Shown piece by piece: positions 2,736-33,320 of a stretch of DNA of 36,227 nucleotides (its first letter is position 1; every line of letters begins with the position of its first letter). The notes below the pieces were generated by a model, which was not told where the DNA came from, made no database searches, and was given only the letters and a program-made list of their open reading frames with translations. Where the stretch lies: IMG/VR virus record IMGVR_UViG_638341087_000024, one strand, 5' to 3'. The translations under genes and the position numbers were made by a program. This DNA comes from a virus. Taxonomy: Duplodnaviria > Heunggongvirae > Uroviricota > Caudoviricetes.

Positions 2736-3074
2736 ATGCTGAAGCAACGCCGTAATTTTCGTATCGGAACAGAACGCCACGCTAACCGTTTCACTACCAG
2801 TGCATCACGCAGCAACATCCGCTACAGCCTGAGTGATACACACGCAACGCCGGATGGCTACCCAGTAAAACAAATCGGCGAGCACGTCTGGCTGATTGAG
2901 AAAGCTGGAATCGTGATCCACAAATGCCCACGCAATCCGTTTACCGGAAACCGCATTTTTGCATTGAGCTGCGGCGACAATCAATTCGGGCAGGATTTCA
3001 CATTATACGAAGCACTTCGCACGGTTGATCGTCTGCTTCGTGGGCAAAGTTTTATTAAACAGGCTGATTTATAA
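2736..3074 (+). CDS. Hypothetical early protein
   Basis: 112-aa ORF in the early rightward operon with coding-like composition. Confidence 0.5.
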   Translation: MLKQRRNFRIGTERHANRFTTSASRSNIRYSLSDTHATPDGYPVKQIGEHVWLIEKAGIVIHKCPRNPFTGNRIFALSCGDNQFGQDFTLYEALRTVDRLLRGQSFIKQADL

Positions 3075-8950: not shown

Positions 8951-9910
8951 ATGAAAATTTGTATCGACGACGGCTCCACCAACATCAAGCTGGCATGGAC
9001 TGAGAACGGCGAACGCCGCAACGCCATCAGCCCGAACAGCTTCAAGTCGGAATGGTCTGCGCCGTTCGGTGGCACGCAGCCCGCGAACTACATGCTTGAT
9101 GGCGTGCGCTATGGTTTTGATCCGGTCAGCGATCGCTTTGTCCAGACGACCGACACGCAATACCAGTACAGTGATGTGAATGTCATTGCCATTCATCACG
9201 CACTGGTCAAATCAGGCATCACGCCACAGGAGGTGGATGTGGTTGTCACCCTGCCACTGAGCGAGTATTTCGACACAAACGCACAGCCGGACATGGCCAA
9301 CATCAACCGCAAAAAAGCGAACGTCATGCGCCCGGTGGAGTACCAGAACGGCGAAGCATTCACTATCCGTAACGTACGGGTTATGCCTGAATCCATTCCG
9401 GCTGGCTTTAAGGCACTGGCTGACATGAGTCCGTTTGAATCCCTGCTGATTGTGGATTTGGGCGGAACCACGCTGGATGTGGCAAAGGTTCAGGGGCAAC
9501 TGGCAGGTATCAGCCAGGTGTTTTGCGATCCACACGTAGGCGTTTCTCTGATGGCCGATGCCGTACTGTCGGTGATGGCCACTAACGGTATGCGCACCAG
9601 TCACCACATCGCCAATACCATTATCGAACATCGCCATGATGAAGCCTGGCTGCGCCAGCACATCCACAATGACGCGCATTACGACAGCCTGATGGCGGTT
9701 ATTCGTGAAAAGGAAGAAACACTGAAACAACGAGTGATCCGCGCGCTGGCGGGTTTTTCGGGTTACGGGCGGGTGATGGTTGTCGGTGGAGGGGCGGAGA
9801 TTGTGGCACCCGCTATCCGCGAAGCCTGCGGAGTTAATGCGACTTTCATCGCGGACGGGGTGCCACAGTTTGCTCTGGTCAATGGTTTGTACGCAATGGA
9901 CAAGGAGTAA
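8951..9910 (+). CDS. parM: ParM/StbA actin-like segregation ATPase (type II partition)
   Basis: N-terminus MKICIDDGSTNIKLAW... and internal motifs (YSDVNVIAIHHAL, VMPESIPAGF, LIVDLGGTTLDV, VMVVGGGAE, LVNGLYAM) closely track plasmid R1 ParM. Confidence 0.9.
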   Translation: MKICIDDGSTNIKLAWTENGERRNAISPNSFKSEWSAPFGGTQPANYMLDGVRYGFDPVSDRFVQTTDTQYQYSDVNVIAIHHALVKSGITPQEVDVVVTLPLSEYFDTNAQPDMANINRKKANVMRPVEYQNGEAFTIRNVRVMPESIPAGFKALADMSPFESLLIVDLGGTTLDVAKVQGQLAGISQVFCDPHVGVSLMADAVLSVMATNGMRTSHHIANTIIEHRHDEAWLRQHIHNDAHYDSLMAVIREKEETLKQRVIRALAGFSGYGRVMVVGGGAEIVAPAIREACGVNATFIADGVPQFALVNGLYAMDKE

Positions 9911-10356: not shown

Positions 10357-10875
10357 TTATAAAAAATAATCATCATGAGAGGAAACATGAAAATTATAAT
10401 CTCTCAATTGGGGGATAATCCCTCTACTCCAAAGCAACGTTTTATTTAGTCCAAGTCCATCTAATTTCATCATCCTGTTGCGCAGCGCAATGAATTCATT
10501 CTTGAAGTTATCTGCAGAGATGATCTTTGGGCAAAAACAAGAATACAACTTTCTATTACTTACACCACAAGCATTGGCAAGCTCATCCTCAAAATTGCTT
10601 GTTTGTTGAAATAGGTGGATTGTGTGTTTTTTCGCCTTTAATAGATTGAGATTATTCTTAAATCTATCAAGATTCTCAATCCTATCCGTATCAAAAACCA
10701 CTATGATTTCGCTATTTTCGGTTAATGCTGGCATGTATTTATTTATATTAACATTCCATAAATTAGCAATTACTATTTTCTTAATAGGATAGCCTAGCAA
10801 TGTTTTGAAATCCTGAAACAATGCTTTTTCCGTATCTCCCTCAACAAGAATAATAGCAAATTTCTTAACTGCCAT
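10357..10875 (-). CDS. Small TOPRIM-like putative nuclease (OLD / DUF4276 / DUF4435-like), distal gene of a two-gene cassette
   Basis: 172 aa from ATG 10873-10875 (the track's TTG-initiated ORF extends to 10881). N-terminal strand with conserved acidic residue (FAIILVEGDTEKALF) and a downstream DxD (IIVVFDTDRIE) match the TOPRIM core signature. Markedly AT-rich; starts 2 nt after the ATPase stop. Confidence 0.6.
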   Translation of the reverse strand: MAVKKFAIILVEGDTEKALFQDFKTLLGYPIKKIVIANLWNVNINKYMPALTENSEIIVVFDTDRIENLDRFKNNLNLLKAKKHTIHLFQQTSNFEDELANACGVSNRKLYSCFCPKIISADNFKNEFIALRNRMMKLDGLGLNKTLLWSRGIIPQLRDYNFHVSSHDDYFL

Positions 10876-10877
10876 AA

Positions 10878-12077
10878 TCAATCCTCAAATAGCATCTCTT
10901 CGATTAATGAAACGTCAGGTATTGTTGCAAAACAGTCATTTTTTACTTTATTTAAAAGATTGCGATCATTCTTTTTATGATGTGTGGTAGCTTCAACAAA
11001 AGTGGTTACACCATCTACTTTTTTAGTAAAAGTATATGAATGCGTAGGCAGATCTAAGCTCAAGATATCATAATTATGTGTGGTGTATATAAATTGACCA
11101 TATCTGCAAAGCTTAGATATAATCAGCGTGACCATCATTTTTTCTAATTCAGTATGAGTGAAGGCCATTTTCTCATCCAAAAAGTACACCCCACTGCAAG
11201 GGAAATTGAACTCTCGCTCTTCTATTTTATCTTCAAGCACTCCTGACAGGAGATGGGATATTTTTACTGCCTCATAAGTACCACGAGACAGTCTATCTTT
11301 ATTTGTTATATCACCTTCCATATCAATAATAACTCTATCTCCATTATTGAAGACTACTGAATAACCCTGCAAATCCTCCTTTCCCTCATCATCTTTAAGA
11401 GTGAGTCCTGAGACAGATTTAACAGTATTGTCAAAGGTTTTTAATATGCTATTAAGCACATTCTTCTTAATTCGTGATATTTTATCCGTGTTCTCTTGGT
11501 TTTCAGATAGAATGAAATGCCAACCAAGAACAAAGTCCAAACCCTCTAAATATTGGGAAAATTCTTTTGAGTTAGCGTTTTCGGTTGAAAAAAATCTATT
11601 TTGACCATTTAATTCAAACTTTTGCGCATCCCACACAGCATCCAGTCTTTTGGTCGTCTTTGCGCATGATTCCGAGCTTCTTAAATCAACAGATGCCATT
11701 GCAATTTTTTCTACAACAACAGACTCATCCATAGCCCTAAGCCAGACACCTGCCCTAAACAAACATTTTAAATGACTCTGGAAAAAGTCAACCTCTATAT
11801 ATGCAGGTTTTCTTTTGTCAGTAATTTTTAACGGTTCTGGATTGAAAACACCACTACTGAGAAAACGCAACACAGAAAGCATCACGCGACCAAGAGATGT
11901 TTTACCAGATGCATTAGCACCAGAAACGATGCAAACCTTTTTGAAGTAGAACTTTTCAAATCCATCAATGTACTCACCTTCCAGTGAGCTGTTGATCGGG
12001 GGTCTGGAGAAGCTTAAGTCAAGGATGCTATTTTCAAAGCAAAACAGATTATCGATTCTGATTTTTGTAAAAGCCAT
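10878..12077 (-). CDS. ABC-type ATPase (AAA_15/AAA_21-like, SMC/OLD-family fold), proximal gene of a two-gene cassette
   Basis: Walker A GANASGKTS (nt about 11895-11921), signature-like LSRGTYEAV, Walker B VYFLDE, H-loop IYTTHNYD. Shine-Dalgarno AAGGTGG 7 nt upstream of ATG 12075-12077. AT-rich relative to flanking phage genes. Confidence 0.8.
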   Translation of the reverse strand: MAFTKIRIDNLFCFENSILDLSFSRPPINSSLEGEYIDGFEKFYFKKVCIVSGANASGKTSLGRVMLSVLRFLSSGVFNPEPLKITDKRKPAYIEVDFFQSHLKCLFRAGVWLRAMDESVVVEKIAMASVDLRSSESCAKTTKRLDAVWDAQKFELNGQNRFFSTENANSKEFSQYLEGLDFVLGWHFILSENQENTDKISRIKKNVLNSILKTFDNTVKSVSGLTLKDDEGKEDLQGYSVVFNNGDRVIIDMEGDITNKDRLSRGTYEAVKISHLLSGVLEDKIEEREFNFPCSGVYFLDEKMAFTHTELEKMMVTLIISKLCRYGQFIYTTHNYDILSLDLPTHSYTFTKKVDGVTTFVEATTHHKKNDRNLLNKVKNDCFATIPDVSLIEEMLFED

Positions 12078-15412: not shown

Positions 15413-15566
15413 TGCTCCCCCTGAGTAATTACAGGAAGATTACCCGCGCGCGAAACTGTTCTCCTTAACCCTCTGTTCTGGCCGTTTTCTTACAACAAAA
15501 GCCCTTTGTATCAGCCTGTTACGCTTTGCCATCATGACTGAAGAACCAGTCAGAGGGGCAAAAACT

Positions 15567-20240: not shown

Positions 20241-20391
20241 CACTCCCACATGGGGAAATCTCGGTATATGGGGCGACCGCCTTCTGGATGCACTGGAAAC
20301 CTGTAACGCAGATAAATGGGCCATTGAATTACTGGAACAGCGCAGGCTGCAACGACTGAACAACGAGGACAACAACCATGCTGAAAACTGA
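20071..20391 (+). CDS. o-spanin (Rz1/LysC-like lipoprotein), overlapped architecture
   Basis: Begins inside the i-spanin gene in another frame and extends past it; lipobox LLTGC and proline-rich mature region. Start could be 20071 or 20101. Confidence 0.55.
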   Translation: MNSYATILQKMNAPTLCLMLVLLTGCAGTQNAPRPAPSVRLIPQTLTIPVTPPPFPDTPTWGNLGIWGDRLLDALETCNADKWAIELLEQRRLQRLNNEDNNHAEN

Positions 20392-20845: not shown

Positions 20846-21473
20846 GGCATTCACCCGCGTGGATGAAACCTTTGAGGCCATCCGCGACAGCCTGAATCAG
20901 CAGGCCATCAATAACATCGCCAGAAAGCTGGCACAGGATTTACGCCGCGCCCAGCAGGCGCGTATCCGGTCACAGAAAGCGCCGGACGGGACCGCGTGGA
21001 CACCACGCAGACGCCGCGTAACCCGGATACAGGAACGCATTCGCTTTATCTGGAATAACGAAGCACGCACGCTGAAAAACTGGCATCACGACACGGGGAA
21101 ATACGGGCGAACCATTACCGGGTGGGATGAGGATAAAAACAATATCCGCACGTTTTACCGGGATGACATCGACCGTTTTCTGGAAATACGCACCCGGCGC
21201 ATCAACCAGGACAGCACCAGGCGCGTCCCCATGTTCGTAAAACTGCGCACCGCCCGCTACCTGAAAGCCCGTGCAGATGCTTCCGGTGTGACGGTGGGTT
21301 ACAGCGGCGTGGCCGCACGTATTGCACGCGTTCATCAGTTCGGTGAGCGCGATCAGGTTGCGCCGGGCATTTTCACCGATTACCCGGTACGTGAGCTGCT
21401 GGGTATCAGCCAGGCAGATGAACGCCTGATTTATAACACGGTGCTGGGCCGGATTGCGGAGGTTGTACGGTGA
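20838..21473 (+). CDS. S: Tail completion / virion morphogenesis protein (P2 gpS-like)
   Basis: ATG 20838 overlapping R stop; synteny between R and V. Confidence 0.7.
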   Translation: MDKAFTRVDETFEAIRDSLNQQAINNIARKLAQDLRRAQQARIRSQKAPDGTAWTPRRRRVTRIQERIRFIWNNEARTLKNWHHDTGKYGRTITGWDEDKNNIRTFYRDDIDRFLEIRTRRINQDSTRRVPMFVKLRTARYLKARADASGVTVGYSGVAARIARVHQFGERDQVAPGIFTDYPVRELLGISQADERLIYNTVLGRIAEVVR

Positions 21474-23298: not shown

Positions 23299-23899
23299 TT
23301 CGTTGTTACCACCATCAGCCAGCAATTTCATGCGTTGTGCCGAAGCCGTCGGAACACGCATTACAGACATTCCGGTAGACCTCAACACGCTGTGGTCGCC
23401 GGACACCTGCCCGGTGCATCTGCTGCCTTATCTCGCCTGGGCGTTTTCCGTTGACCGCTGGGATCGCAACTGGCCGGAAGAGACAAAGCGACAGGTGATT
23501 CGTGATGCATGGCTGATACACCGACACAAAGGGACCATCAGCGCACTGCGAAGAGCCGTGGAGCCTCTCGGCTACCTGATTGAAGTAAAGGAGTGGTGGC
23601 AACTCAACGAGGAGCCGGGAACATTTCGCATTGTTGTCGGAGTACTTGATCAGGGCATCACCGATGAAATGTATCAGGAACTTGAGCGCCTTATTGCGGA
23701 TGCAAAACCAGTAAGTCGCCATCTGACGGGGCTGGCGATCAGCCTGAGTGTGAACGGAAAGATTTTCGTTGGTACGGGATGCTATCACGGCGATGCCCTG
23801 ACGGTTTATCCCTACACCCCGGAGTCCATTATTGTCGAAGGGGATTATTTCCCTGCCCCAGCCATTCATTTAATTGATAATCTGAGAGTAAACGCATGA
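23291..23899 (+). CDS. I: Baseplate protein (P2 gpI)
   Basis: ATG 23291 overlapping J stop (ATGAGTAA); synteny before tail fibre H. Confidence 0.8.
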   Translation: MSNSLLPPSASNFMRCAEAVGTRITDIPVDLNTLWSPDTCPVHLLPYLAWAFSVDRWDRNWPEETKRQVIRDAWLIHRHKGTISALRRAVEPLGYLIEVKEWWQLNEEPGTFRIVVGVLDQGITDEMYQELERLIADAKPVSRHLTGLAISLSVNGKIFVGTGCYHGDALTVYPYTPESIIVEGDYFPAPAIHLIDNLRVNA

Positions 23900-25536
23900 C
23901 AGTGAAATACTACGCCATTCTGACTAATCAGGGCGCGGCACGACTGGCTAACGCGACGATGCTCGGCAGTAAGCTGAATCTGACGCAAATGGCCGTTGGT
24001 GATGCAAATGGTGTGTTACCAACACCAGACCCTGCACAAACAAAACTGATTAACCAGAAACGCATTGCACCGCTGAATCTTCTGAGTGTTGACCCTAACA
24101 ATCAGAGCCAGATTATTGCGGAGCAAATCATCCCTGAAAACGAGGGAGGATTCTGGATCCGTGAGATTGGTCTTTATGATGATGAAGGTGTACTCATTGC
24201 GGTGGCAAACTGCCCGGAAACGTACAAACCGCAGTTGCAGGAAGGCAGTGGACGCACCCAAACTATCCGCATGATTCTGGTTGTCACGAACACCGAAGCC
24301 ATCACGCTGAAAATTGACCCGTCTGTGGTTCTGGCAACCCGCAAATATGTGGATGATAAAATATCAGAGCACGAACAGTCACGACGTCACCCGGACGCCT
24401 CGCTGACCGTAAAAGGTTTTACTCAGTTAAGCAGTGCAATTAACAGTGAATCAGAAACACTGGCCGCAACACCGAAAGCGGTTAAGGCTGCATATGACCT
24501 GGCTAACGAGAAATATACCGCCCAGAACGCCACCACTACACAAAAAGGGATTGTTCAGCTCAGTAGCGCCACGAACAGCACGTCTGAAACACTGGCAGCG
24601 ACACCAAAAGCTGTTAAGGCGGTAATGGATGAAACGAACAAGAAAGCACCATTAAACAGCCCGGCACTGACCGGAACGCCAACAACACCAACAGCGCCAC
24701 AGGGGACTAATAGTACCCAGATCGCAAGCACGGCTTTCGTTATGGCCGCGATTGCCGCACTTGTAGATTCGTCACCTGATGCACTGAACACGCTGAACGA
24801 ACTGGCTGCGGCGCTGGGCAATGACCCGAATTTTGCGACCACCATGACTAACGCGCTTGCGGGTAAGCAACCGAAGGATGCCACCCTGACGGCGCTGGCG
24901 GAGCTTGCTACATCAGCAGATAAACTCCCATATTTTACAGGGGCAGATCGTGCCGCGTTAACCGCGTTGACAAGTGTTGGACGTGCCATTCTTGGTAAAA
25001 CCAGCACTCAGGGAGTTCTTGATTACCTTGGTTTGGGAGAAGGCTCTGCATTACCGGTTGGGGTGCCTGTTCCGTGGCCTTCAGCCACTCCGCCAACAGG
25101 CTGGCTGAAATGCAATGGTGCGGCTTTTTCTGTTGAAGAATACCCGGAACTGGCAAAGGCTTACCCGACCAATAAATTGCCTGATTTACGCGGTGAATTT
25201 ATTCGTGGCTGGGATGACGGTCGCGGGATTGATACTGGTCGCGCTTTGCTTAATTGGCAGCCACACACAATTTTGGACCATGCACACTATATGGAATTAT
25301 GGACAGGGGACGGACTCGCCGCAGGAAGTGCACGGGAAGGAGTAAACCCAGGAATACTGGCTACATACGGTGACGGGGGAATAGTTAAAACGGACGAACC
25401 CGGTCTTAAGGTGCCTTCCTCACTACGAGCTATTAGCTCTCGTAGTGTTAAACGTTATGGTGAAATTAGTGAAAATGTAGGTACAGAAACTCGTCCTCGT
25501 AACATCGCTTTTAATTATATTGTAAGGGCCGCATGA
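23896..25536 (+). CDS. H: Tail fibre protein (P2 gpH-like) with invertible C-terminal domain
   Basis: Conserved N-terminus MTVKYYAILTNQGAARLANA...; internal repeats SETLAATPKAVKA (x2); the C-terminal part downstream of the crossover site at about 25028 is the currently expressed variable domain. Confidence 0.88.
   Translation: MTVKYYAILTNQGAARLANATMLGSKLNLTQMAVGDANGVLPTPDPAQTKLINQKRIAPLNLLSVDPNNQSQIIAEQIIPENEGGFWIREIGLYDDEGVLIAVANCPETYKPQLQEGSGRTQTIRMILVVTNTEAITLKIDPSVVLATRKYVDDKISEHEQSRRHPDASLTVKGFTQLSSAINSESETLAATPKAVKAAYDLANEKYTAQNATTTQKGIVQLSSATNSTSETLAATPKAVKAVMDETNKKAPLNSPALTGTPTTPTAPQGTNSTQIASTAFVMAAIAALVDSSPDALNTLNELAAALGNDPNFATTMTNALAGKQPKDATLTALAELATSADKLPYFTGADRAALTALTSVGRAILGKTSTQGVLDYLGLGEGSALPVGVPVPWPSATPPTGWLKCNGAAFSVEEYPELAKAYPTNKLPDLRGEFIRGWDDGRGIDTGRALLNWQPHTILDHAHYMELWTGDGLAAGSAREGVNPGILATYGDGGIVKTDEPGLKVPSSLRAISSRSVKRYGEISENVGTETRPRNIAFNYIVRAA
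25016..25041. promoter_or_regulatory. Invertase crossover site (hix/gix-like), left
   Basis: TTCTTGATTACC-TT-GGTTTGGGAGAA resembles hixL as recalled (TTCTTGAAAACCAAGGTTTTTGATAA) and is an inverted copy of the right site (15-bp identity TTGGTTTGGGAGAAG); falls on the shared GLGE codons of the two alternative fibre ends. Confidence 0.65.
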
Positions 25537-26138
25537 TGAATAAAGCTGTATTAAATAGCGAACTCATTGCCATAAAAGCGGGAGATATTACCGTTTATAA
25601 TTATGATGGTGAAACGCGGGAATATATTTCTACATCAACTGAATATCTCGCTGTCGGCGTCGGTATCCCGGCATGTTCTTGTTTAGATGCACCAGTTACA
25701 CATAAAGCTGGTTATGCAATCTGCCGTTCTGCAGATTTTAACTCATGGGAATATGTGCCAGACCATCGCGGTGAAATCATCTATAGCACCGAAACAGGAG
25801 AATCGAAAGAAATCACAGCTCCGGGTGATTATCCTGAAAATACAACCACTATCGCCCCGTTAACGCCATACGATGAATGGGATGGTGAGAAATGGGTGAC
25901 AGATACTGAGGCACAGCATAGCGCCGCAGTAGGCGCGGCAGAAGCACAGCGTCAGTCACTGATTGATACTGCAATGGCTTCCATTAGTCTGATTCAACTG
26001 AAATTGCAGGCCGGGCGGAAGCTGATGCAGACAGAAAACACCCGACTTAACGCTGTGCTGGATTACATTGACGCGGTGACGGCAACAGATACCAGCACCG
26101 CGCCGGACGTCATCTGGCCTGAACTGCCGGAGGCGTAG
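25533..26138 (+). CDS. G: Tail fibre assembly protein (P2 gpG / Tfa), expressed orientation
   Basis: 201 aa; follows H with overlapping stop/start; C-terminal motif APDVIWPELPEA typical of Tfa chaperones. Confidence 0.8.
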   Translation: MMNKAVLNSELIAIKAGDITVYNYDGETREYISTSTEYLAVGVGIPACSCLDAPVTHKAGYAICRSADFNSWEYVPDHRGEIIYSTETGESKEITAPGDYPENTTTIAPLTPYDEWDGEKWVTDTEAQHSAAVGAAEAQRQSLIDTAMASISLIQLKLQAGRKLMQTENTRLNAVLDYIDAVTATDTSTAPDVIWPELPEA

Positions 26139-26529
26139 GCCATTCAATATCTGGCGCACCGGAAGTATCGACCAGTTCCAGTGCGTCCAGATAATCCAGC
26201 CACAAATTATATTGCGCCAGTTCCTCACCTTTCAGGCGACCAATCGCCGCTTTACCTGGCCATTGTCTGCTGTTCATGTGCTCGTTGGCTTCATTAATAA
26301 GTTTTCTTTTTTTCAAATCCGCCAATGCAATAAGGTTTTCTTTTGATAAAGGTGGTTGCTCTGTCAAAACCGGATATCCCTCCTGATTGCTGACTATTTT
26401 CATGCCATTATCCTGACCATCCAGTAGTAACAGCCATTCATCCGTGGTTATCTCAACAGCATCTGAAGGTGCTTTATTTAAATCGGTAAAAAAACCATTT
26501 TCTTTTTGTGAATAGAAGTATCTATCCAT
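26110..26529 (-). CDS. Alternative tail fibre assembly protein (Tfa'), silent orientation
   Basis: 139 aa, convergent with G; C-terminal APDIEWPTPPA motif; inside the invertible segment. Confidence 0.75.
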   Translation of the reverse strand: MDRYFYSQKENGFFTDLNKAPSDAVEITTDEWLLLLDGQDNGMKIVSNQEGYPVLTEQPPLSKENLIALADLKKRKLINEANEHMNSRQWPGKAAIGRLKGEELAQYNLWLDYLDALELVDTSGAPDIEWPTPPAVQAR

Positions 26530-26532
26530 TTA

Positions 26533-26934
26533 TTAATCTCCAAAAGCAATCCAGTAAGCAAAAGGATTTATTCCTTGCTCAGTCACAGATGACATCAGGG
26601 AAAATTGCGATGGTGAAACAGGTAACGCTGCAAAACTAACCATTGTTGACACACCTGACCGTGCATTATCGTACGATGCAACAACACAATAATTGGTATT
26701 GCTGAAAGATATCGGCAGGGTGATATTTACAGGTGAGCCTAATGGCCCTGATGCTGATATTCCCATTTGAATGATGGTTCCATCAGGCAATTTTCTCCAG
26801 CGATTAGAACTCGGATTTCTTTTCCAGGCTGACATATCCGGTATCTGATTTTCTCCTGTGCCCACATCCCTTTTCGCCGCTTCTCCCAAACCAACGTTTA
26901 AGAAAATGCAGAGATTACGGCTAACTGGCATCAT
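26533..26934 (-). CDS. Alternative tail fibre C-terminal cassette (Sv'-like), promoterless in the current orientation
   Basis: Minus-strand ORF whose translation shares GLGE at the crossover site with H; inversion would fuse about 26533..26893 to the constant part of H. Confidence 0.7.
   Translation of the reverse strand: MMPVSRNLCIFLNVGLGEAAKRDVGTGENQIPDMSAWKRNPSSNRWRKLPDGTIIQMGISASGPLGSPVNITLPISFSNTNYCVVASYDNARSGVSTMVSFAALPVSPSQFSLMSSVTEQGINPFAYWIAFGD
26881..26906. promoter_or_regulatory. Invertase crossover site (hix/gix-like), right
   Basis: Reverse complement TTTTCTTAAACG-TT-GGTTTGGGAGAA matches the left site; lies about 55 bp upstream of the invertase gene. Confidence 0.65.
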
Positions 26935-26961: not shown

Positions 26962-27561
26962 ATGCTTATTGGCTATGTCCGCGTATCAACAAATGACCAG
27001 AATACAGAATTGCAGCGTAACGCGCTGGAGTGCGCAGGATGTGAACTAATTTTTGAAGATAAAATCAGCGGAACGAAATCAGCCAGACCGGGATTGAAAA
27101 AACTGATCAGAACGCTATCAGAAGGAGATACGCTGGTTGTCTGGAAGCTGGACAGACTGGGCAGAAGTATGAAACACCTGATCACGCTTATTGAGGAATT
27201 GCGGGAAAAAGGTGTTAATTTCCGTAGTCTGACGGACAGCATTGACACATCAACACCCATGGGGCGTTTCTTTTTTCACGTCATGGGGGCTTTAGCCGAA
27301 ATGGAACGTGAATTAATTGTAGAGCGTACCCTGGCCGGGCTGGCAGCAGCACGCGCACAAGGACGCATTGGCGGACGTCGCCCGAAGTTGACAAAAGAAC
27401 AACACGAGCAAATAGCGAGGCTGATTAAAAACGGTCATGACAGGAAACAACTGGCGATCATTTACGACATCGGCATATCGACGATTTATCGTTATCACCC
27501 TGTAGGCGATATACAGGCTGAAGAAACAACCAGGCAGACTCAGGAAAATGAAAACCGCTAA
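26962..27561 (+). CDS. Serine DNA invertase (Hin/Gin/Cin/Pin family)
   Basis: MLIGYVRVSTNDQNTELQ..., LVVWKLDRLGRS, and C-terminal HTH with GGRRPKLT are hallmark resolvase/invertase motifs. Confidence 0.95.
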   Translation: MLIGYVRVSTNDQNTELQRNALECAGCELIFEDKISGTKSARPGLKKLIRTLSEGDTLVVWKLDRLGRSMKHLITLIEELREKGVNFRSLTDSIDTSTPMGRFFFHVMGALAEMERELIVERTLAGLAAARAQGRIGGRRPKLTKEQHEQIARLIKNGHDRKQLAIIYDIGISTIYRYHPVGDIQAEETTRQTQENENR

Positions 27562-27587
27562 TCTGACCATTAGCGGTTTTGCGTTAA

Positions 27588-28082
27588 TCAAAACAGCCCT
27601 TTAACGGAGCTGGCCGCGCTGTTAAGGGATGATGTGACCTTATCTTTGAAGCCGGACAGCATATCACTGAACGATGAGGATTGCAGGCGCTCCCGCAAAT
27701 CCTCATCACAGCGTTCAAGGGTCAGTGAAAATTCTATCTTTTTCGCCTTACCGTAGCGATCAAACTCGGAACGGGTCGTATTCGTTCCAGTCAGGACATA
27801 CATGCCGTAAATCTGCCCGACGCCATCAATCAAAGGCCAGGGTCGTCCTGTATAAGCCTGCGTGGTCAGCAGCGACAGCGACACTTCGCCACCTGTAATT
27901 TCAGGATAAAGCACACCAGAAAGAACGATGCGATCATCACCTGCACCGATATACTGCCAGCTTGCTGAACGGTTAATGCGTTCATTTTTCACATGCCGCC
28001 AGCTTTTGTTTTGCTGTAACTGCTGATGCGGCAGCGTGCGCAGCTCAAAAACAAACATGCCGTAGATCATCATCATGGCCAT
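27588..28082 (-). CDS. U: Tail protein U (P2 gpU)
   Basis: 164 aa; MAMMMIYGMFVFELRTLPHQ... and WPLIDG..., GMYVL... parallel P2 U. Confidence 0.8.
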   Translation of the reverse strand: MAMMMIYGMFVFELRTLPHQQLQQNKSWRHVKNERINRSASWQYIGAGDDRIVLSGVLYPEITGGEVSLSLLTTQAYTGRPWPLIDGVGQIYGMYVLTGTNTTRSEFDRYGKAKKIEFSLTLERCDEDLRERLQSSSFSDMLSGFKDKVTSSLNSAASSVKGLF

Positions 28083-28088
28083 GACTCC

Positions 28089-30905
28089 TCAATCTTTATC
28101 GTAAAAACTGCCACGCCCGGCACGGGCGCGCCGTTCCATTTCTGCCCTGACCATTTCACCGACCAGTTTCGCCAGTTCGCGGGGATTCTGCGTAACAACG
28201 TTATGCAGATGAACATGAATTTCACCACCAAATTCGGAGGCAACAGGCTCCCGGTTACGGGAAGTTACAGGAACTGATGCCACTGGAGATCGTATAGCCT
28301 CCGCCACCGGGCGGGAGCTGGCCGCAACAACAGTGACCAGCGCCGGAGGCAGCGGAGCCGGGACCACGGGTGTGATATTAATTGCGGGGGCAGGCTTACT
28401 GACCTGCGCAATCTTCCGCTCCTGCCACTCCCCACGAACAGCAAGTGCCCGGGGCAGGTTTTTAAAGACAATATCGCCGGGGCCAATGCGTTTTTTCGTC
28501 TCCTCAACCAGCTTACCTGTGTTATCAGCAATTTTGCTGAGTCTGCGCAGCGTACCGGTATTGCTGTCTGTGAGCGGTTTATTGTCTTTGGGGTTATCAC
28601 CTCCGGTGCCATTGCCATTTTCCACAGGCTTCGGCGGATTGATTTTCGCCAGGTCCCCCTGAAGCAAGGCAACCTTGTCCTGAAGAATGGCCGCACGCTG
28701 TGCGTCTTCGATTTTCTTGCGCGCCCTTTCCGCTTCATCCGGAAGCACACCAAGCTTTTCAAGTATCCACGCCAGCGTATCCAGCAACATTTTTGCAGGT
28801 GTCAGAACAAGTTGTAACGCACCGCCAAGAACGTTACCGAATATCTCGCCAGCACTGGTACATTTATCCAGAGTTTCCTTGCTGGACTCCATCGGTGACA
28901 GCAGCGATTTAAACCAGTTAAACACCTGGCTGATCCCACTCCCGATTGCGTCAAAAACAGGACTAAACCGTTCAAAGGTTTCGCGCAACGGGGTCAGCCT
29001 TTCCATAATCCCACTGAACACCCCGGCATAAAACGCCTTGATGGGTTCCCAGTATTTCCAGATGAGAACCGCCGCAGCGACAAACGCTGCAGCAATCAAC
29101 CCGACCGGACTGAACAGCGCCCCGACAGCGCCTCCCAGTAACGAGATGGAGCCTGTCACCATTCCCCATAATGCAGGCAGAACCCTGACAGCATTCATTG
29201 ATCCGGTCAGGAGAGAAAAACCAAGACGCAACGTGGCCAGCTTCCCGTGAAGCACTCCAATAACCAGCGACAACGAGCCAACCGTTGCAGTCATTGCCAG
29301 CAGCGCACCGCCTGCTATCAGTAACTGGCGCGTCAGTACCGGATGGGCCTGTGCCAGCGCCGTCACCTTTGAGACCACCCGCGTGAGCCACTGCGTGACA
29401 GAACGCAGCGGACCATCAATCAGATCTGCAATGCGGATACGCAGCCCTTCCCATGCACTGCCGAGTGATTTCAGGTCGCCATCAAGGTTATTGGCCATAA
29501 CCTTTGCCGTGCGTTCAGCCTCACCGCGCGCACCTTCAAGTTCTTTTCTCAGTTTGGGTAAGGAGCCGTCACCTGCCGCATCAACGAGGGCCATAAATGA
29601 TGTGAAAGCCTCTTCTCCGGCAATGTCCTTAAAGAACGATACCCGGTCAACTTCCCCGTATTTGCGGGTGGCTTTATAAAGGTCAGCCAGCACATCCTCC
29701 ATCGGGCGCATTTTGCCCCCGGCATCCGAGACAGACACGCCAAGCTCTTTCAGCGCCTCTGCTGCCGCCTTTGGCGGTGATGCCAGACGAGCCAGGCTGG
29801 CACGCATTGCCGTACCAGCATCACTACCCCTGATACCCATATTCGCCAGCACGCCCGCCATCGCTGCGGCCTGCTCCAGCGATATTCCCAGCTTACCCGC
29901 CACCGGACCTGCATATTTCATGGTTTCACCCAGTGCGCGAAGGTCAGTGTTGGTACGGGTAAACGCTGCGGTAAGTGTGTCACCGACCCGGTCCATCTGG
30001 TCAGCAGAAAGGCCGAACTGCGTCAGGATATTTGAGCCAATATCCGCCGTCTCGCCGAGATCCATACCGCCAGCCGTTGCCATGCTCAGCACGCCCGGAA
30101 GCGCAGCCTGAATGGCCTGCGGTGTGAAGCCAGCCATTGCAAGAAATGCCTGCCCACTGGCGGCATCGCCTGCGGTGAACTGCGTTTCAGAGCCAAGTTT
30201 TAACGCCTGCTCACGCAGCGCCTTAAACTGCGGGCTGTTTTTGTCGATTCGCGTCAGTGCCTGAACGCGGGACATCTCTTTCCCGAACCCGATCGCAGGC
30301 TGCAAAAAACGCCCGGCAGCATAGCTGCCAGCCGCTGCCGCACCAATTGCCAGCGCACCACCTGTTTTCAGTTTTCCCGCGGTTTCCTGCGCGCGCGAAT
30401 ACCGCTCACGCGCACGTGTTACACGCGCAAGCGCCTGCCGTTCGCGTTCAAGCTGGTTGTTGTACTGTTCGGTGCGTCTGATGGCCTGCTGGATGGTGTT
30501 ATCGCTGCCTGTCAGGGAAATGCCGTGGCGTTTCAGCTCTCCGCCAAGCTCCCGCATTTTCTGAATTTCCCGTGTACGCGATTCATTCAGGCGTTCAAGC
30601 CGGGTGCTTAACTGCTGCATCAGCTTTTGTTGTTTTTCGCTGAGCACTGTACCCGTGCGTTGTAACTGATTAAGGGCGTTAAGCTGGCGTCGTGCTTTCA
30701 CGATGCCCGCATCCGCTTTACTGACAGCGTCGCGGGCGCGCTCAAATGATCGCGCCTGACGCTCGAGATTTTTGATCGCCCCCTGCGTTCGCTGGATGGA
30801 GTCACCAAACTGCCCCATCAGGCGGCGGGCGTTTTCGGCAGGTCGGGTCAGCCTATCAACGGCGCTGAAAGCGACCCGGATATCAAGAGTCTTCATTGTC
30901 TGCAT
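28089..30905 (-). CDS. T: Tail tape measure protein (P2 gpT)
   Basis: About 938 aa, coiled-coil N-terminus and Gly/Ala-rich hydrophobic central region. Start uncertain (ATGs at 30932, 30905, 30896). Confidence 0.85.
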   Translation of the reverse strand: MQTMKTLDIRVAFSAVDRLTRPAENARRLMGQFGDSIQRTQGAIKNLERQARSFERARDAVSKADAGIVKARRQLNALNQLQRTGTVLSEKQQKLMQQLSTRLERLNESRTREIQKMRELGGELKRHGISLTGSDNTIQQAIRRTEQYNNQLERERQALARVTRARERYSRAQETAGKLKTGGALAIGAAAAGSYAAGRFLQPAIGFGKEMSRVQALTRIDKNSPQFKALREQALKLGSETQFTAGDAASGQAFLAMAGFTPQAIQAALPGVLSMATAGGMDLGETADIGSNILTQFGLSADQMDRVGDTLTAAFTRTNTDLRALGETMKYAGPVAGKLGISLEQAAAMAGVLANMGIRGSDAGTAMRASLARLASPPKAAAEALKELGVSVSDAGGKMRPMEDVLADLYKATRKYGEVDRVSFFKDIAGEEAFTSFMALVDAAGDGSLPKLRKELEGARGEAERTAKVMANNLDGDLKSLGSAWEGLRIRIADLIDGPLRSVTQWLTRVVSKVTALAQAHPVLTRQLLIAGGALLAMTATVGSLSLVIGVLHGKLATLRLGFSLLTGSMNAVRVLPALWGMVTGSISLLGGAVGALFSPVGLIAAAFVAAAVLIWKYWEPIKAFYAGVFSGIMERLTPLRETFERFSPVFDAIGSGISQVFNWFKSLLSPMESSKETLDKCTSAGEIFGNVLGGALQLVLTPAKMLLDTLAWILEKLGVLPDEAERARKKIEDAQRAAILQDKVALLQGDLAKINPPKPVENGNGTGGDNPKDNKPLTDSNTGTLRRLSKIADNTGKLVEETKKRIGPGDIVFKNLPRALAVRGEWQERKIAQVSKPAPAINITPVVPAPLPPALVTVVAASSRPVAEAIRSPVASVPVTSRNREPVASEFGGEIHVHLHNVVTQNPRELAKLVGEMVRAEMERRARAGRGSFYDKD

Positions 30906-31412
30906 TCCCGCTGCGAAGTGCCGCCCGCTCACGCCAGCTAACCACTTCGCCGGGCGTCATCATGAAGATTTCGGCGGGCGACCAGTTAAAAATGGCGGCA
31001 ATATCCGCCACAAAGTCTTCTATGTGCTCAAAGCACACAACCGTGATCAGGCTTCCGTCGCCTGTTCGTTCTTCCCGCCAGAGTCCGCACCGCTCAAAAA
31101 ATTTACGGCAACCACACATAACTGAATAAAGTCACGGGATGCCATTTTTTTGATCGTCACTTCATCCAGTCGCGGTGATGTCACGCGTGACAGCAGCGTA
31201 AACATGGATTCCGCTTTCAGATTCAGCACATCAGACAGCGACAAATCTCGCAGAGATCCAGCCTGCTCAATAGCCCCGGTGATCTCCACATACGTGATTT
31301 TTTCGCCGCCTCGCTCAATTGGTTGGGTAAGTTTTACGCCACGCTCACTGGTTTCTTTCACAGTGTCAGTAACTACCGTGTTTTCGGTATCGATGTTTTT
31401 CGTCTCTTTCAT
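30883..31412 (-). CDS. E: Tail assembly chaperones E and E+E' (-1 programmed frameshift product); E alone is 31047..31412
   Basis: E ORF (31047..31412) carries a T6G slippery heptamer on the minus strand; the -1 frame (30883..31119) continues to the start of T, as in P2 E/E'. Confidence 0.7.
31095..31101 (-). other. Slippery heptamer TTTTTTG for -1 programmed ribosomal frameshift (E to E')
   Basis: Minus-strand ...GTA AAT TTT TTG AGC... inside E; the overlapping ORF 30883..31119 is in the -1 frame. Confidence 0.65.
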
Positions 31413-31466
31413 CAGGAAACTCCTTTCAGTCAGAGGCGACGCACTGCGCCGCCTGCATATTACTTA

Positions 31467-31979
31467 TCAGCCAAGCCCAAGCGCGGAACGGATACGGTCA
31501 GGCACGATGTCCTTGCCGTCCTTCCGGTAAATGAAGTTCAGCAGGTCAATCTCCCACAACGGGCGATCGTTAACACTCAGCTTGTAGTAGGTGTTTTTAA
31601 TGGCGTAAGTGTGTGATGTGGCTTCGCCCTGTTTGGCTTCCCCCATATCAATTTCCGTCACACGTCCGCGCATTTCGACTTCATACAGGTCGCTTTCTGC
31701 ATCGGTGTAATATTCACCCGCAAAACGCAGCAGCGTGCCGTCAATCGTGCCACCATACTTAAGGAACAGCTCACGAACTGCGCCCCCCATGACAAAGCTC
31801 GCATCAAGCGCGGAGTCGTCCAGACCGAGATCAATACTTACCGCCCCCATCATGCCACCACCACGGTAGCTGTCGGTTTTGCGCGTCAGCTTAGGCAGAG
31901 TGACGGACGTCACCTTACCCACTTCGTTTTCACCATCCACAAACAGCGTAAAAAAGCGAAGATGTTTTGGCACAGCCAT
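31467..31979 (-). CDS. FII: Tail tube protein (P2 gpFII)
   Basis: 170 aa; size and synteny immediately after the sheath gene. Confidence 0.85.
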   Translation of the reverse strand: MAVPKHLRFFTLFVDGENEVGKVTSVTLPKLTRKTDSYRGGGMMGAVSIDLGLDDSALDASFVMGGAVRELFLKYGGTIDGTLLRFAGEYYTDAESDLYEVEMRGRVTEIDMGEAKQGEATSHTYAIKNTYYKLSVNDRPLWEIDLLNFIYRKDGKDIVPDRIRSALGLG

Positions 31980-33163
31980 CAGGCACCTCCCAGCACCGCA
32001 AATGCGGGTTCAAAGTATTCATCAGTAAACGTCTGGTAAAGCTCCATGTCTTCCAGTGGCGGAACGGGCGTATATTTGTAGCGAATACGCACACGCCCCT
32101 GACGTAAATCCGTGGTGCTGTTATCCACCACGTCATACCAGCACTCCGCGCCAATCAGTTTCCCGACAGTAACCAGTGAATCCAGTTTTGCCCTGATGGC
32201 ACTGATAACATCCTTCACGTTCGCAGGCGTCAGTGGACTGTCGATGGTTTCAAACTGCGCTTCCGCAATTGAATCAGCCAGCACCTGTGCGGTTCGGGTA
32301 TACACCTCAAAGATGTAGGCGTTCGTTTCCGGTGTGCGGTTGCCCCAGAAGCGGAACCCGTTGCGACGAATAATGGTCGTGATTTCTTTGTTGTTGAGGC
32401 TGTTGGCATCGCTGTCTTCGGCCTGCAACGACCAGAACACATGCCTCGACATCCCCAGCACATTTTTAACCGGAACGTTGGACAGTGATTTGTGCCATCC
32501 CTGCTCATGGTCAATGTACGCACGAAGGCCGCACGCATAGGCAGGCGCGGGGAACGTTTCGTTTTTGCCACTTTTCGGGTTGTAGGCGATGAAGTCCGGC
32601 CATAAGAGCATCACCTCACGTTCGTTGAATTTCTGGCGGTAGGTAATCGCCTCAGCCATCGTGTTACAGCCGTGACATGAGGCATACACAAACGCGCGCA
32701 GTTTACCCGCAATCACGCACAGGGATTTTGTCACCGCCTCCGTGTCCAGCTCCGGCGCGGCCAGAATACGCGGACGGTATCCGATGCTTTCATCCTGCTC
32801 TGCAACAAGCAGCGCATACATCCCCGTATAGCTGCCGTCATCCTCAGAACCACCGATAACCAGTTGATCCTGCGTCTTTCCGTCTTCTTCTTTGTGTTCA
32901 GCCACGCGAACGACGATCACCTTTGTGCTCACCTGGTCTGCGATGGCCTTAAGCGCACGATAAAGCGTCCCCGTTGTCCCGCATTTTCCCAGCACGTCAT
33001 TGACGCGGGTCAGCAGTGTTGGCTTGTTCAGCGGGAACAGCTTCGCGTCCGCATCATCCGCCGTTGCCACGATACCGATAACACTGGAATCAACATCGTT
33101 AATCGCTGTTACCAGGTCGGTATTTTCCGTAACACGGGCACCATGAAAACGAGTTTCACTCAT
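31979..33163 (-). CDS. FI: Tail sheath protein (P2 gpFI)
   Basis: 394 aa; colinear with P2 FI (FPLNKP, ADQ, KLRAF, WPDF, EQGWHK, RRNGFRFWGNRT, TPVPPLE). Confidence 0.92.
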   Translation of the reverse strand: MSETRFHGARVTENTDLVTAINDVDSSVIGIVATADDADAKLFPLNKPTLLTRVNDVLGKCGTTGTLYRALKAIADQVSTKVIVVRVAEHKEEDGKTQDQLVIGGSEDDGSYTGMYALLVAEQDESIGYRPRILAAPELDTEAVTKSLCVIAGKLRAFVYASCHGCNTMAEAITYRQKFNEREVMLLWPDFIAYNPKSGKNETFPAPAYACGLRAYIDHEQGWHKSLSNVPVKNVLGMSRHVFWSLQAEDSDANSLNNKEITTIIRRNGFRFWGNRTPETNAYIFEVYTRTAQVLADSIAEAQFETIDSPLTPANVKDVISAIRAKLDSLVTVGKLIGAECWYDVVDNSTTDLRQGRVRIRYKYTPVPPLEDMELYQTFTDEYFEPAFAVLGGA

Positions 33164-33320
33164 AGCTTCAGCCCCTTGTATCCGTTAAATGATTCGGCAA
33201 CAATCATCACCCACCACGCGCGTAATCTCACCCCTGCGCCATTCTCCCGCCACGGCGACAACAAAAAGCAGTAACCCCCTCCGCACGCACATGCGACCAT
33301 GCCACACAGGGAGGGAGCAG

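Follow-up and report, generated by a model that had tools for sequence, protein, structure and literature searches.

Why do the tail genes of a P2-like prophage lie on the strand opposite to D, a gene that in P2 belongs to the same operon? This question is raised by a 36,227-nucleotide stretch of viral DNA (IMG/VR record IMGVR_UViG_638341087_000024, hereafter the window), in which U, T, E/E', FII and FI occupy the minus strand (27588-33163) whereas H, G, D and ogr are on the plus strand. The list of open reading frames (ORFs) and the Pfam and PHROG scans agree on this layout with an earlier note made from the sequence alone, which also placed D divergent from FI across 157 bp and about 5.7 kb from U; both distances hold with the D start taken at 33321. 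The order FI-FII-E-E'-T-U-D that the note gave as a single same-strand operon is indeed so annotated in the P2 reference, where D overlaps the end of U. Homologues of FI, FII, E/E', T, U and D are all present in the window (Pfam and PHROG), with 32-49% identity to the P2 proteins, and the layout of P2 and 186, seven codirectional genes with D right after U, is not found there. The best explanation, in which we have good confidence, is that a single ancestral inversion would have split the P2 F operon into two divergent late units, most likely sharing one Ogr-type box.

Gene order in related genomes

The window is a P88-like prophage (Xuanwuvirus, Peduoviridae). From the invertase gene through U, T, E, FII and FI to D, it aligns to P88 as a single colinear piece with 96% nucleotide identity over 7.5 kb, the comparison covering this part of the genome, and the same stretch is colinear at 93-95% in Xuanwuvirus P884B11, in phages 500465-2 and 520873 and in Citrobacter phage phiSM. 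The strands annotated in P88 and phiSM are identical to those of the window. Of the 1380 Escherichia coli genomes that contain an 801-bp probe spanning the FI/D junction, 1358 have it intact, a quarter of the 5426 complete genomes sampled; among them is O157:H7 Sakai, whose prophage Sp13 is annotated as "P2-like". The earlier note had considered a mis-oriented assembly, which does not survive the recurrence of the same junctions in independent phage isolates and in these 1358 complete genomes. Neither can the orientation of the block be kept as an anomaly, since it is the standard one in reference genomes of this genus.

The other end of the block behaves differently. A probe for the invertase/U junction is intact in 621 complete E. 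coli genomes (strain 504838 matches at 100%), and in the remaining ones the match begins just downstream of the U stop codon, so that the DNA downstream of U is a variable slot while the orientation of U is constant. In the window the similarity breaks at 27582-27590 and leftward, the 621 genomes carrying the invertase module and the rest other content. This makes the convergent gap between G and U a hotspot for cargo, the counterpart of the Z/fun slot of P2.

The divergent order extends well beyond Xuanwuvirus. A tblastn search of phage records with FI and D also recovered the divergent pair in SEN5 of Salmonella (Senquatrovirus), in Kp4848-1 and Kp4877-2 of Klebsiella (Reipivirus and Reginaelenavirus, respectively) and in KSP20 of Serratia; FI and D lie on the same strand in P2, 186, Wphi, phages of Yersinia, Ralstonia and Burkholderia, and more distant phages. 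The inversion of the FI-U block relative to P2 and 186, as proposed in the earlier note, is thus borne out by comparison, as a property of a lineage.

A survey of one genome per species yielded 57 loci, which were scored together with the earlier loci for FI, FII, T, U, D, I, G, the invertase and Ogr; three further loci had no D match and were left out of the orientation count. All the loci whose FI is at least 56% identical (27/27) have D adjacent on the opposite strand, across a gap of 158-319 bp. In every scorable locus with an FI of 48% identity or less (32/32), FI to U and D are codirectional and about 4 kb separate FI from D; P2, the T22 P2-like phage, Rouxiella, Yersinia, Acidovorax, sphingomonads and Brevundimonas belong to this second set. 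The divergent order is common to P88, phiSM, SEN5, the two Klebsiella phages, KSP20 and 23 prophages of other Enterobacterales, the hosts of inverted loci being Salmonella, Citrobacter, Edwardsiella, Enterobacter, Kosakonia, Symbiopectobacterium, Mixta, Pantoea, Erwinia, Izhakiella, Kluyvera, Trabulsiella, Serratia and Klebsiella. One surveyed contig of 226 kb (L012, NZ_JBQPOM010000071.1) is titled Vagococcus sp. WN89Y and carries a prophage region with 96-100% protein identity to the E. coli version; its sequence is 97% identical to that of E. coli, and the Gram-positive label looks like contamination or a mislabelled assembly.

In a neighbour-joining tree of FI the inverted set is monophyletic (100/100 bootstraps). 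As the distant outgroups are codirectional, the divergent order is the derived state, and one old inversion, fixed since in the clade, would account for it.

The FI/D intergenic region

An inversion of this kind raises the problem of the transcription of D, which the earlier note left open after a search by eye for a perfect TGT-N12-ACA box, the Ogr-type consensus, in the FI/D gap. We confirm that the gap contains no perfect box, nor does any late-gene region of the window: scanning the whole window gives three hits, fewer than expected by chance, all of them outside the late intergenic regions. Requiring the perfect consensus is too stringent, because the PF and PP/PO boxes of P2 itself do not conform to it (TGT-N12-CCA). 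The limits of the gap (33164-33320) depend on the D start at 33321, an ATG preceded by GGGAGGGAG and annotated as the start in P88.

When one mismatch is allowed at N12 spacing, a single dyad box is found within the 157 bp (coordinates in Table 1), and an orthologous box occurs at the same place in a gap alignment of five genera; it is a perfect TGT-N12-ACA in SEN5, KSP20 and Kp4877-2. We compared 26 distinct sequences anchored ungapped on this box. Its left arm, TTTTTGTTGT, is kept in nearly all of them, SEN5 and two others differing at one base at least, and its right arm is conserved as CAGA or CACA. The sequence between the box and the hexamers described below varies. On the FI side, a hexamer GATTAT, GATGAT or GAATAT keeps a fixed distance to the box in almost all 26, with a shift of at most 1 nt in a few lineages; a simple scan left two of the 26 relatives offset or unmatched and mis-picked one locus. 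On the D side, a hexamer GATCCT, AATCAT, GACCAT or AACCAT is found 40 nt (within 1 nt) from the other edge of the box, preceded by CGCGCGCG-TGn, so that the pattern of the clade at this mirrored position is xAxxxT after CGCGCGCG-TGn, which resembles an extended -10. The predicted starts deduced from the candidate -10 positions, about 33196 for FI and 33307 for D, would each be 55.5 bp from the box centre and 111 bp apart.

A simple sigma-70 scan of 33164-33320 detected no promoter, as expected for activator-dependent promoters. Two features required of a late promoter are present: the gap offers no usable -35, and the window encodes a cognate zinc-finger activator (35636-35896). As a negative control, the canonical PF regions of three loci (P2, the T22 P2-like phage and a Yersinia aldovae prophage) show no -10-like hexamer at the mirrored position; their box is as far from FI as in the inverted loci, at 76-82 bp.

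Such a geometry has a precedent. The P2 reference, on whose GenBank annotation, together with background literature on P2 promoters, our comparison is based, records one "activator binding site; pO, pP promoters", with starts at 3016 and 3127 that are both 55.5 bp from the box centre. In phage Smp131, one 18-bp box was likewise assigned to both PP' and PO' (PMC3931495). The P/O intergenic region of the window carries the same TTTGTTGT-N12-AGA as the FI/D box, flanked by candidate -10s, TAATCT on the P side and CATCAT on the O side, whose first bases lie 43.5 and 44.5 bp from the centre of the box. This 11-base motif occurs exactly twice in the 36-kb window, at the P/O and FI/D gaps; given the first site, we calculate a chance of about 1e-4 for an 11/11 match within a second gap of 157 bp.

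Altogether, the earlier statement that no perfect box is present stands, and the question it left has now a candidate answer, in which D would rely on the conserved Ogr-type box together with FI, and on an extended -10-like element, likewise conserved, on its own side of the gap. It is probable that D is transcribed from a late promoter of its own, and the FI-U unit and D are most likely both driven from the single box at 33243-33260. Transcription would start at the positions given above in dependence on Ogr, and one bound activator may serve both directions.

Several observations weigh against this proposal. The start sites and the Ogr dependence are only predicted. The box departs from the consensus at one position (AGA for ACA), and a one-mismatch box is by itself expected by chance about 0.7 times per 157 bp. 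On the D side the hexamer GACCAT is a weak one, the compared sequences are related, so that part of their conservation reflects shared descent, and the negative control comprises three canonical loci only. Besides, the D frame is open from 33189, and the in-frame ATG at this position could extend D across the proposed promoter.

The segment 33189-33320 (plus strand) is indeed annotated in several records, as a 44-codon extension of D or as a small ORF (P88 gp50; in RefSeq a "hypothetical protein" between the sheath gene and D). These small ORFs of the FI/D gap match no family and overlap both the box and the -10 elements that are conserved there, so that they are unlikely to be real genes; annotators should be aware that they cover a probable promoter.

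Origin of the divergent order

In the scenario that we favour, a segment bounded by the PF promoter and U, with FI, FII, E/E' and T between them, would have been inverted once, in the ancestor of the P88-like branch of Enterobacterales phages. D and ogr would not have moved, and the order would have been fixed thereafter, with G facing U across a convergent gap, then T, E, FII and FI read towards U, the box, and D read outwards. The F operon of P2 would thereby have been divided into FI-FII-E/E'-T-U on the one hand and D alone on the other. The inversion would have carried PF, including its box, next to D; the box being symmetric, a -10 element mirroring that of FI in its distance would have been enough for D. 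We are inclined, with somewhat more belief than doubt, to see in this event both the creation of a second bidirectional Ogr-dependent late promoter and a single-event synapomorphy of a deep P2-like clade of Enterobacterales, which would include at least Xuanwuvirus, Senquatrovirus, Reipivirus and Reginaelenavirus.

The neighbourhood of the block invites another interpretation, also raised in the earlier note: a serine invertase gene lies directly beside the U end, and invertases of the Gin/Hin family are able to act at secondary sites, so that the 5.7-kb block might have been flipped through secondary hix-like sites, if it was not simply mis-assembled. We scanned the window with the 26-bp palindromic hix/gix-type consensus (20 scored positions, of which shuffled sequence reaches 13-16). 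Exactly two strong sites were found, and both bound the 1.9-kb invertible tail-fibre segment, not the 5.7-kb block. At the two block junctions there is no hix-type site, the best score being 11/20, below the shuffled background, and the inverted repeats flanking the block are only short ones at chance level. The invertase has no match in most loci of the inverted clade; conversely, the canonical T22 P2-like phage has an invertase yet keeps the P2 order. The other orientation was met in none of the surveyed genomes (1358/1380 E. coli junctions and 27/27 clade loci), and both junctions are found again in independent isolates, as well as in complete E. coli genomes, 621 of them for invertase/U and 1358 for FI/D. 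The junction counts, the survey and the hix scan refute an assembler error or an active invertase switch for practical purposes, and the likelihood that we leave to either is close to nil. The invertase is a bystander to the orientation of the block.

A replacement of the FI-U module by a horizontally acquired one, inserted in reverse, would give the same gene order as an inversion in place. P2-like phages are mosaic, the slot downstream of U differs among genomes, and rearrangements of the late operon are known elsewhere, e.g. in Smp131 (PMC3931495). Nevertheless, FI, FII, T and U show no greater divergence from P2 than do the genes Q, P, O, N, M, V, W and D (32-47% identity for FI-U, against 36-47% for the head genes and 49% for D), which favours inversion in place. 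The break in identity between inverted and canonical phages is similar for D (at least 62% versus at most 52%) and for FI (at least 56% versus at most about 49%). Likewise, the PF box lies 81-88 bp from the FI ATG, versus 82 bp in P2, as expected if the promoter moved with its operon. We count module replacement among the points against a simple inversion, and consider it quite improbable.

The doubt is greater for the promoter of D, which might be an Ogr-independent extended -10 promoter or use a separate activator site, leaving the box to FI. An extended -10 motif can work without a -35 element or an activator, the TGn and hexamer are conserved on the D side, and this hexamer varies more between lineages than that of FI. 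Against such independence, the spacing between the D hexamer and the box edge is almost constant at 40 nt though the intervening sequence diverges, the 157 bp hold only one box with at most one mismatch at N12 spacing, and the sigma-70 scan detects no promoter in the gap; moreover the PP/PO pair of P2 already uses one site with the same 111-bp separation of the starts. We therefore regard a D promoter independent of the shared box as unlikely, and retain the inversion with a box common to FI and D.

Other features of the window and known systems

The features of the tail block and of its surroundings are collected in Table 1. The hairpin in the convergent invertase/U gap is likely a bidirectional terminator ending the FI-U transcript, and that found after D likely ends the D transcript and would be shared with a convergent ORF of 274 amino acids.

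Table 1. Features of the tail block, its flanks and the regulatory elements discussed (window coordinates)
Feature	Position	Strand	Evidence or remark
P/O intergenic box	15477-15494		same motif as FI/D box
H (tail fibre)	23896-25536	+	ORF listing, Pfam/PHROG scans
Left hix/gix-type crossover site	25016-25041		17/20 consensus positions; inverted repeat with 26880-26897
G (tail fibre assembly)	25533-26138	+	ORF listing, Pfam/PHROG scans
Alternative tail-fibre cassettes	26110-26934	-	ORF listing, Pfam/PHROG scans
Right hix/gix-type crossover site	26881-26906		18/20 consensus positions
Serine DNA invertase (Gin/Hin/Cin/Pin type)	26962-27561	+	Pfam Resolvase 8.9e-52 and HTH_7; so annotated in P88, phiSM
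Hairpin, 12-bp stem, convergent invertase/U	27551-27580		terminator scan and sequence
U (tail protein)	27588-28082	-	Pfam Phage_P2_GpU 1.2e-38
T (tape measure)	28089-30932	-	Pfam PhageMin_Tail 3.7e-58; P88-annotated start at 30896
E' frame	30883-31119	-	Pfam Phage_P2_GpE 2.6e-12; entered via -1 frameshift
E (tail assembly chaperone)	31047-31412	-	PHROG 103 "tail protein" 2.3e-35; 32% identity to P2 E
E/E' slippery heptamer TTTTTTG	31095-31101	-	within E/E' frame overlap; sequence level only
FII (tail tube)	31467-31979	-	Pfam Phage_tube 7.5e-47
FI (tail sheath)	31979-33163	-	three Pfam sheath domains; 46% identity to P2 FI
Candidate FI (PF) -10 GATGAT	33203-33208	-	ends 40 nt from box; predicted start about 33196
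Ogr-type dyad box	33243-33260		TCT-N12-ACA (+), TGT-N12-AGA (-) toward FI; centre 33251.5; one mismatch
Candidate D extended -10 TG-c-GACCAT	33292-33300	+	hexamer ends 40 nt from box; predicted start about 33307
D (baseplate hub / late control D)	33321-34418	+	Pfam Phage_GPD 2e-17; 100% identical to P88 D protein, 49% to P2 D
Hairpin after D	34588-34608		terminator scan, both strands; sequence
Ogr/Delta-type zinc-finger late activator	35636-35896	+	Pfam Ogr_Delta 5.1e-14

The genes R-S-V-W-J-I-H-G constitute a further group of tail genes. No third Ogr-type box was found in the window upstream of R or V for these genes, which may be driven by read-through from PO or by a degenerate box. The stretches concerned are 20241-20377 and 21470-21473; unlike in P2, S and V overlap and there is no PV-type gap.

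Three other groups of genes are worth mentioning. At 10357-12077 (minus strand), a low-GC cassette (0.37-0.38) of two genes resembles an AbiL defence pair, one encoding a 399-amino-acid ATPase (PADLOC AbiLi 9.6e-28, Pfam AAA_15) and the other a 174-amino-acid OLD-type TOPRIM protein with weak AbiLii and GajA matches; it adjoins the portal gene, at the position of the old/tin cargo slot of P2. The orphan 274-amino-acid ORF (34635-35459, minus strand) stands in a 1.2-kb stretch of about 0.40 GC between D and ogr, which are adjacent in most relatives. It has no match in Pfam, NCBIfam or PADLOC and one weak PHROG match of unknown function (E = 0.004). P88 carries there a hok/mok-like gene and phiSM a TagO-like gene, so that the D/ogr gap is a second variable slot. 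Finally ParM/StbA-type actin-like partition genes (8951-9910, plus strand, and the next ORF; Pfam StbA_N 1.8e-82) follow the replication gene A; also annotated in P88 and Sp13, they are unusual for an integrating P2-like phage.

In the literature that we searched on P88, SEN4/5, the Citrobacter rodentium prophages, P2 diversity and hotspots, and phylogeny, the inversion or the gene orientation is not mentioned, and we found no description of a shared FI/D promoter. The gene order itself has long been on public record in annotated genomes (Sakai Sp13, KSP20, P88, SEN4/5). The finding is thus real but ordinary, and would not surprise a P2 specialist; it brings no new system and leaves the understanding of P2-like phages unchanged. 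Its practical consequence is that an FI-U block on the opposite strand of a P2-like prophage is diagnostic of a clade, and should not be flagged as a mis-assembly or as the product of an invertase. It also provides an example of P2-type late regulation tolerating a rearrangement: since the promoters require little beyond a symmetric activator site, an inversion bringing the box beside D can leave both units under late control. If this is true, the clade would be a natural experiment in which a symmetric class-I-type activator site allowed an operon to be split without loss of late control.

Among known phages, the closest to the window are the other Xuanwuvirus members (P88, P884B11, 500465-2, 520873, phiSM and Sakai Sp13), identical in strands and FI/D gap; they differ by the cargo of the variable slots, and in some the invertase module is missing downstream of U. 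Senquatrovirus (SEN4/SEN5), Reipivirus, Reginaelenavirus and KSP20 resemble the window in the divergence of FI and D, in having a single box and in the geometry of the -10s, but the identity of their FI is limited to 56-70%, the invertase is absent, and their D and ogr are adjacent.

The invertible segments of the Gin/Hin/Cin/Pin type (Mu G, P1 C, e14 P) have a counterpart in the tail-fibre switch of the window (25016-26906), an invertase with two inverted 26-bp sites that bound G cassettes and alternative C-termini of H. Here the switch is 1.9 kb long and upstream of the invertase, and the 5.7-kb tail block lies outside it, without such sites.

The F operon of P2 and 186 has the same genes as the window, the E/E' slippery site, an Ogr-type activator and a box about 82-88 bp upstream of the FI ATG. 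In P2, D has no promoter of its own and overlaps the end of U, whereas in the window FI-U is inverted and D is 5.7 kb from U, divergent from FI. A comparable design exists in P2 itself: in its PP/PO pair the two divergent units have one dyad box halfway between them, with each start at about 55.5 bp, as predicted for FI/D, and both regions have weak -10s and no recognisable -35. The PP/PO starts are mapped and annotated while those of FI/D are predicted, and the FI/D region would constitute a second unit of this kind, which P2 lacks.

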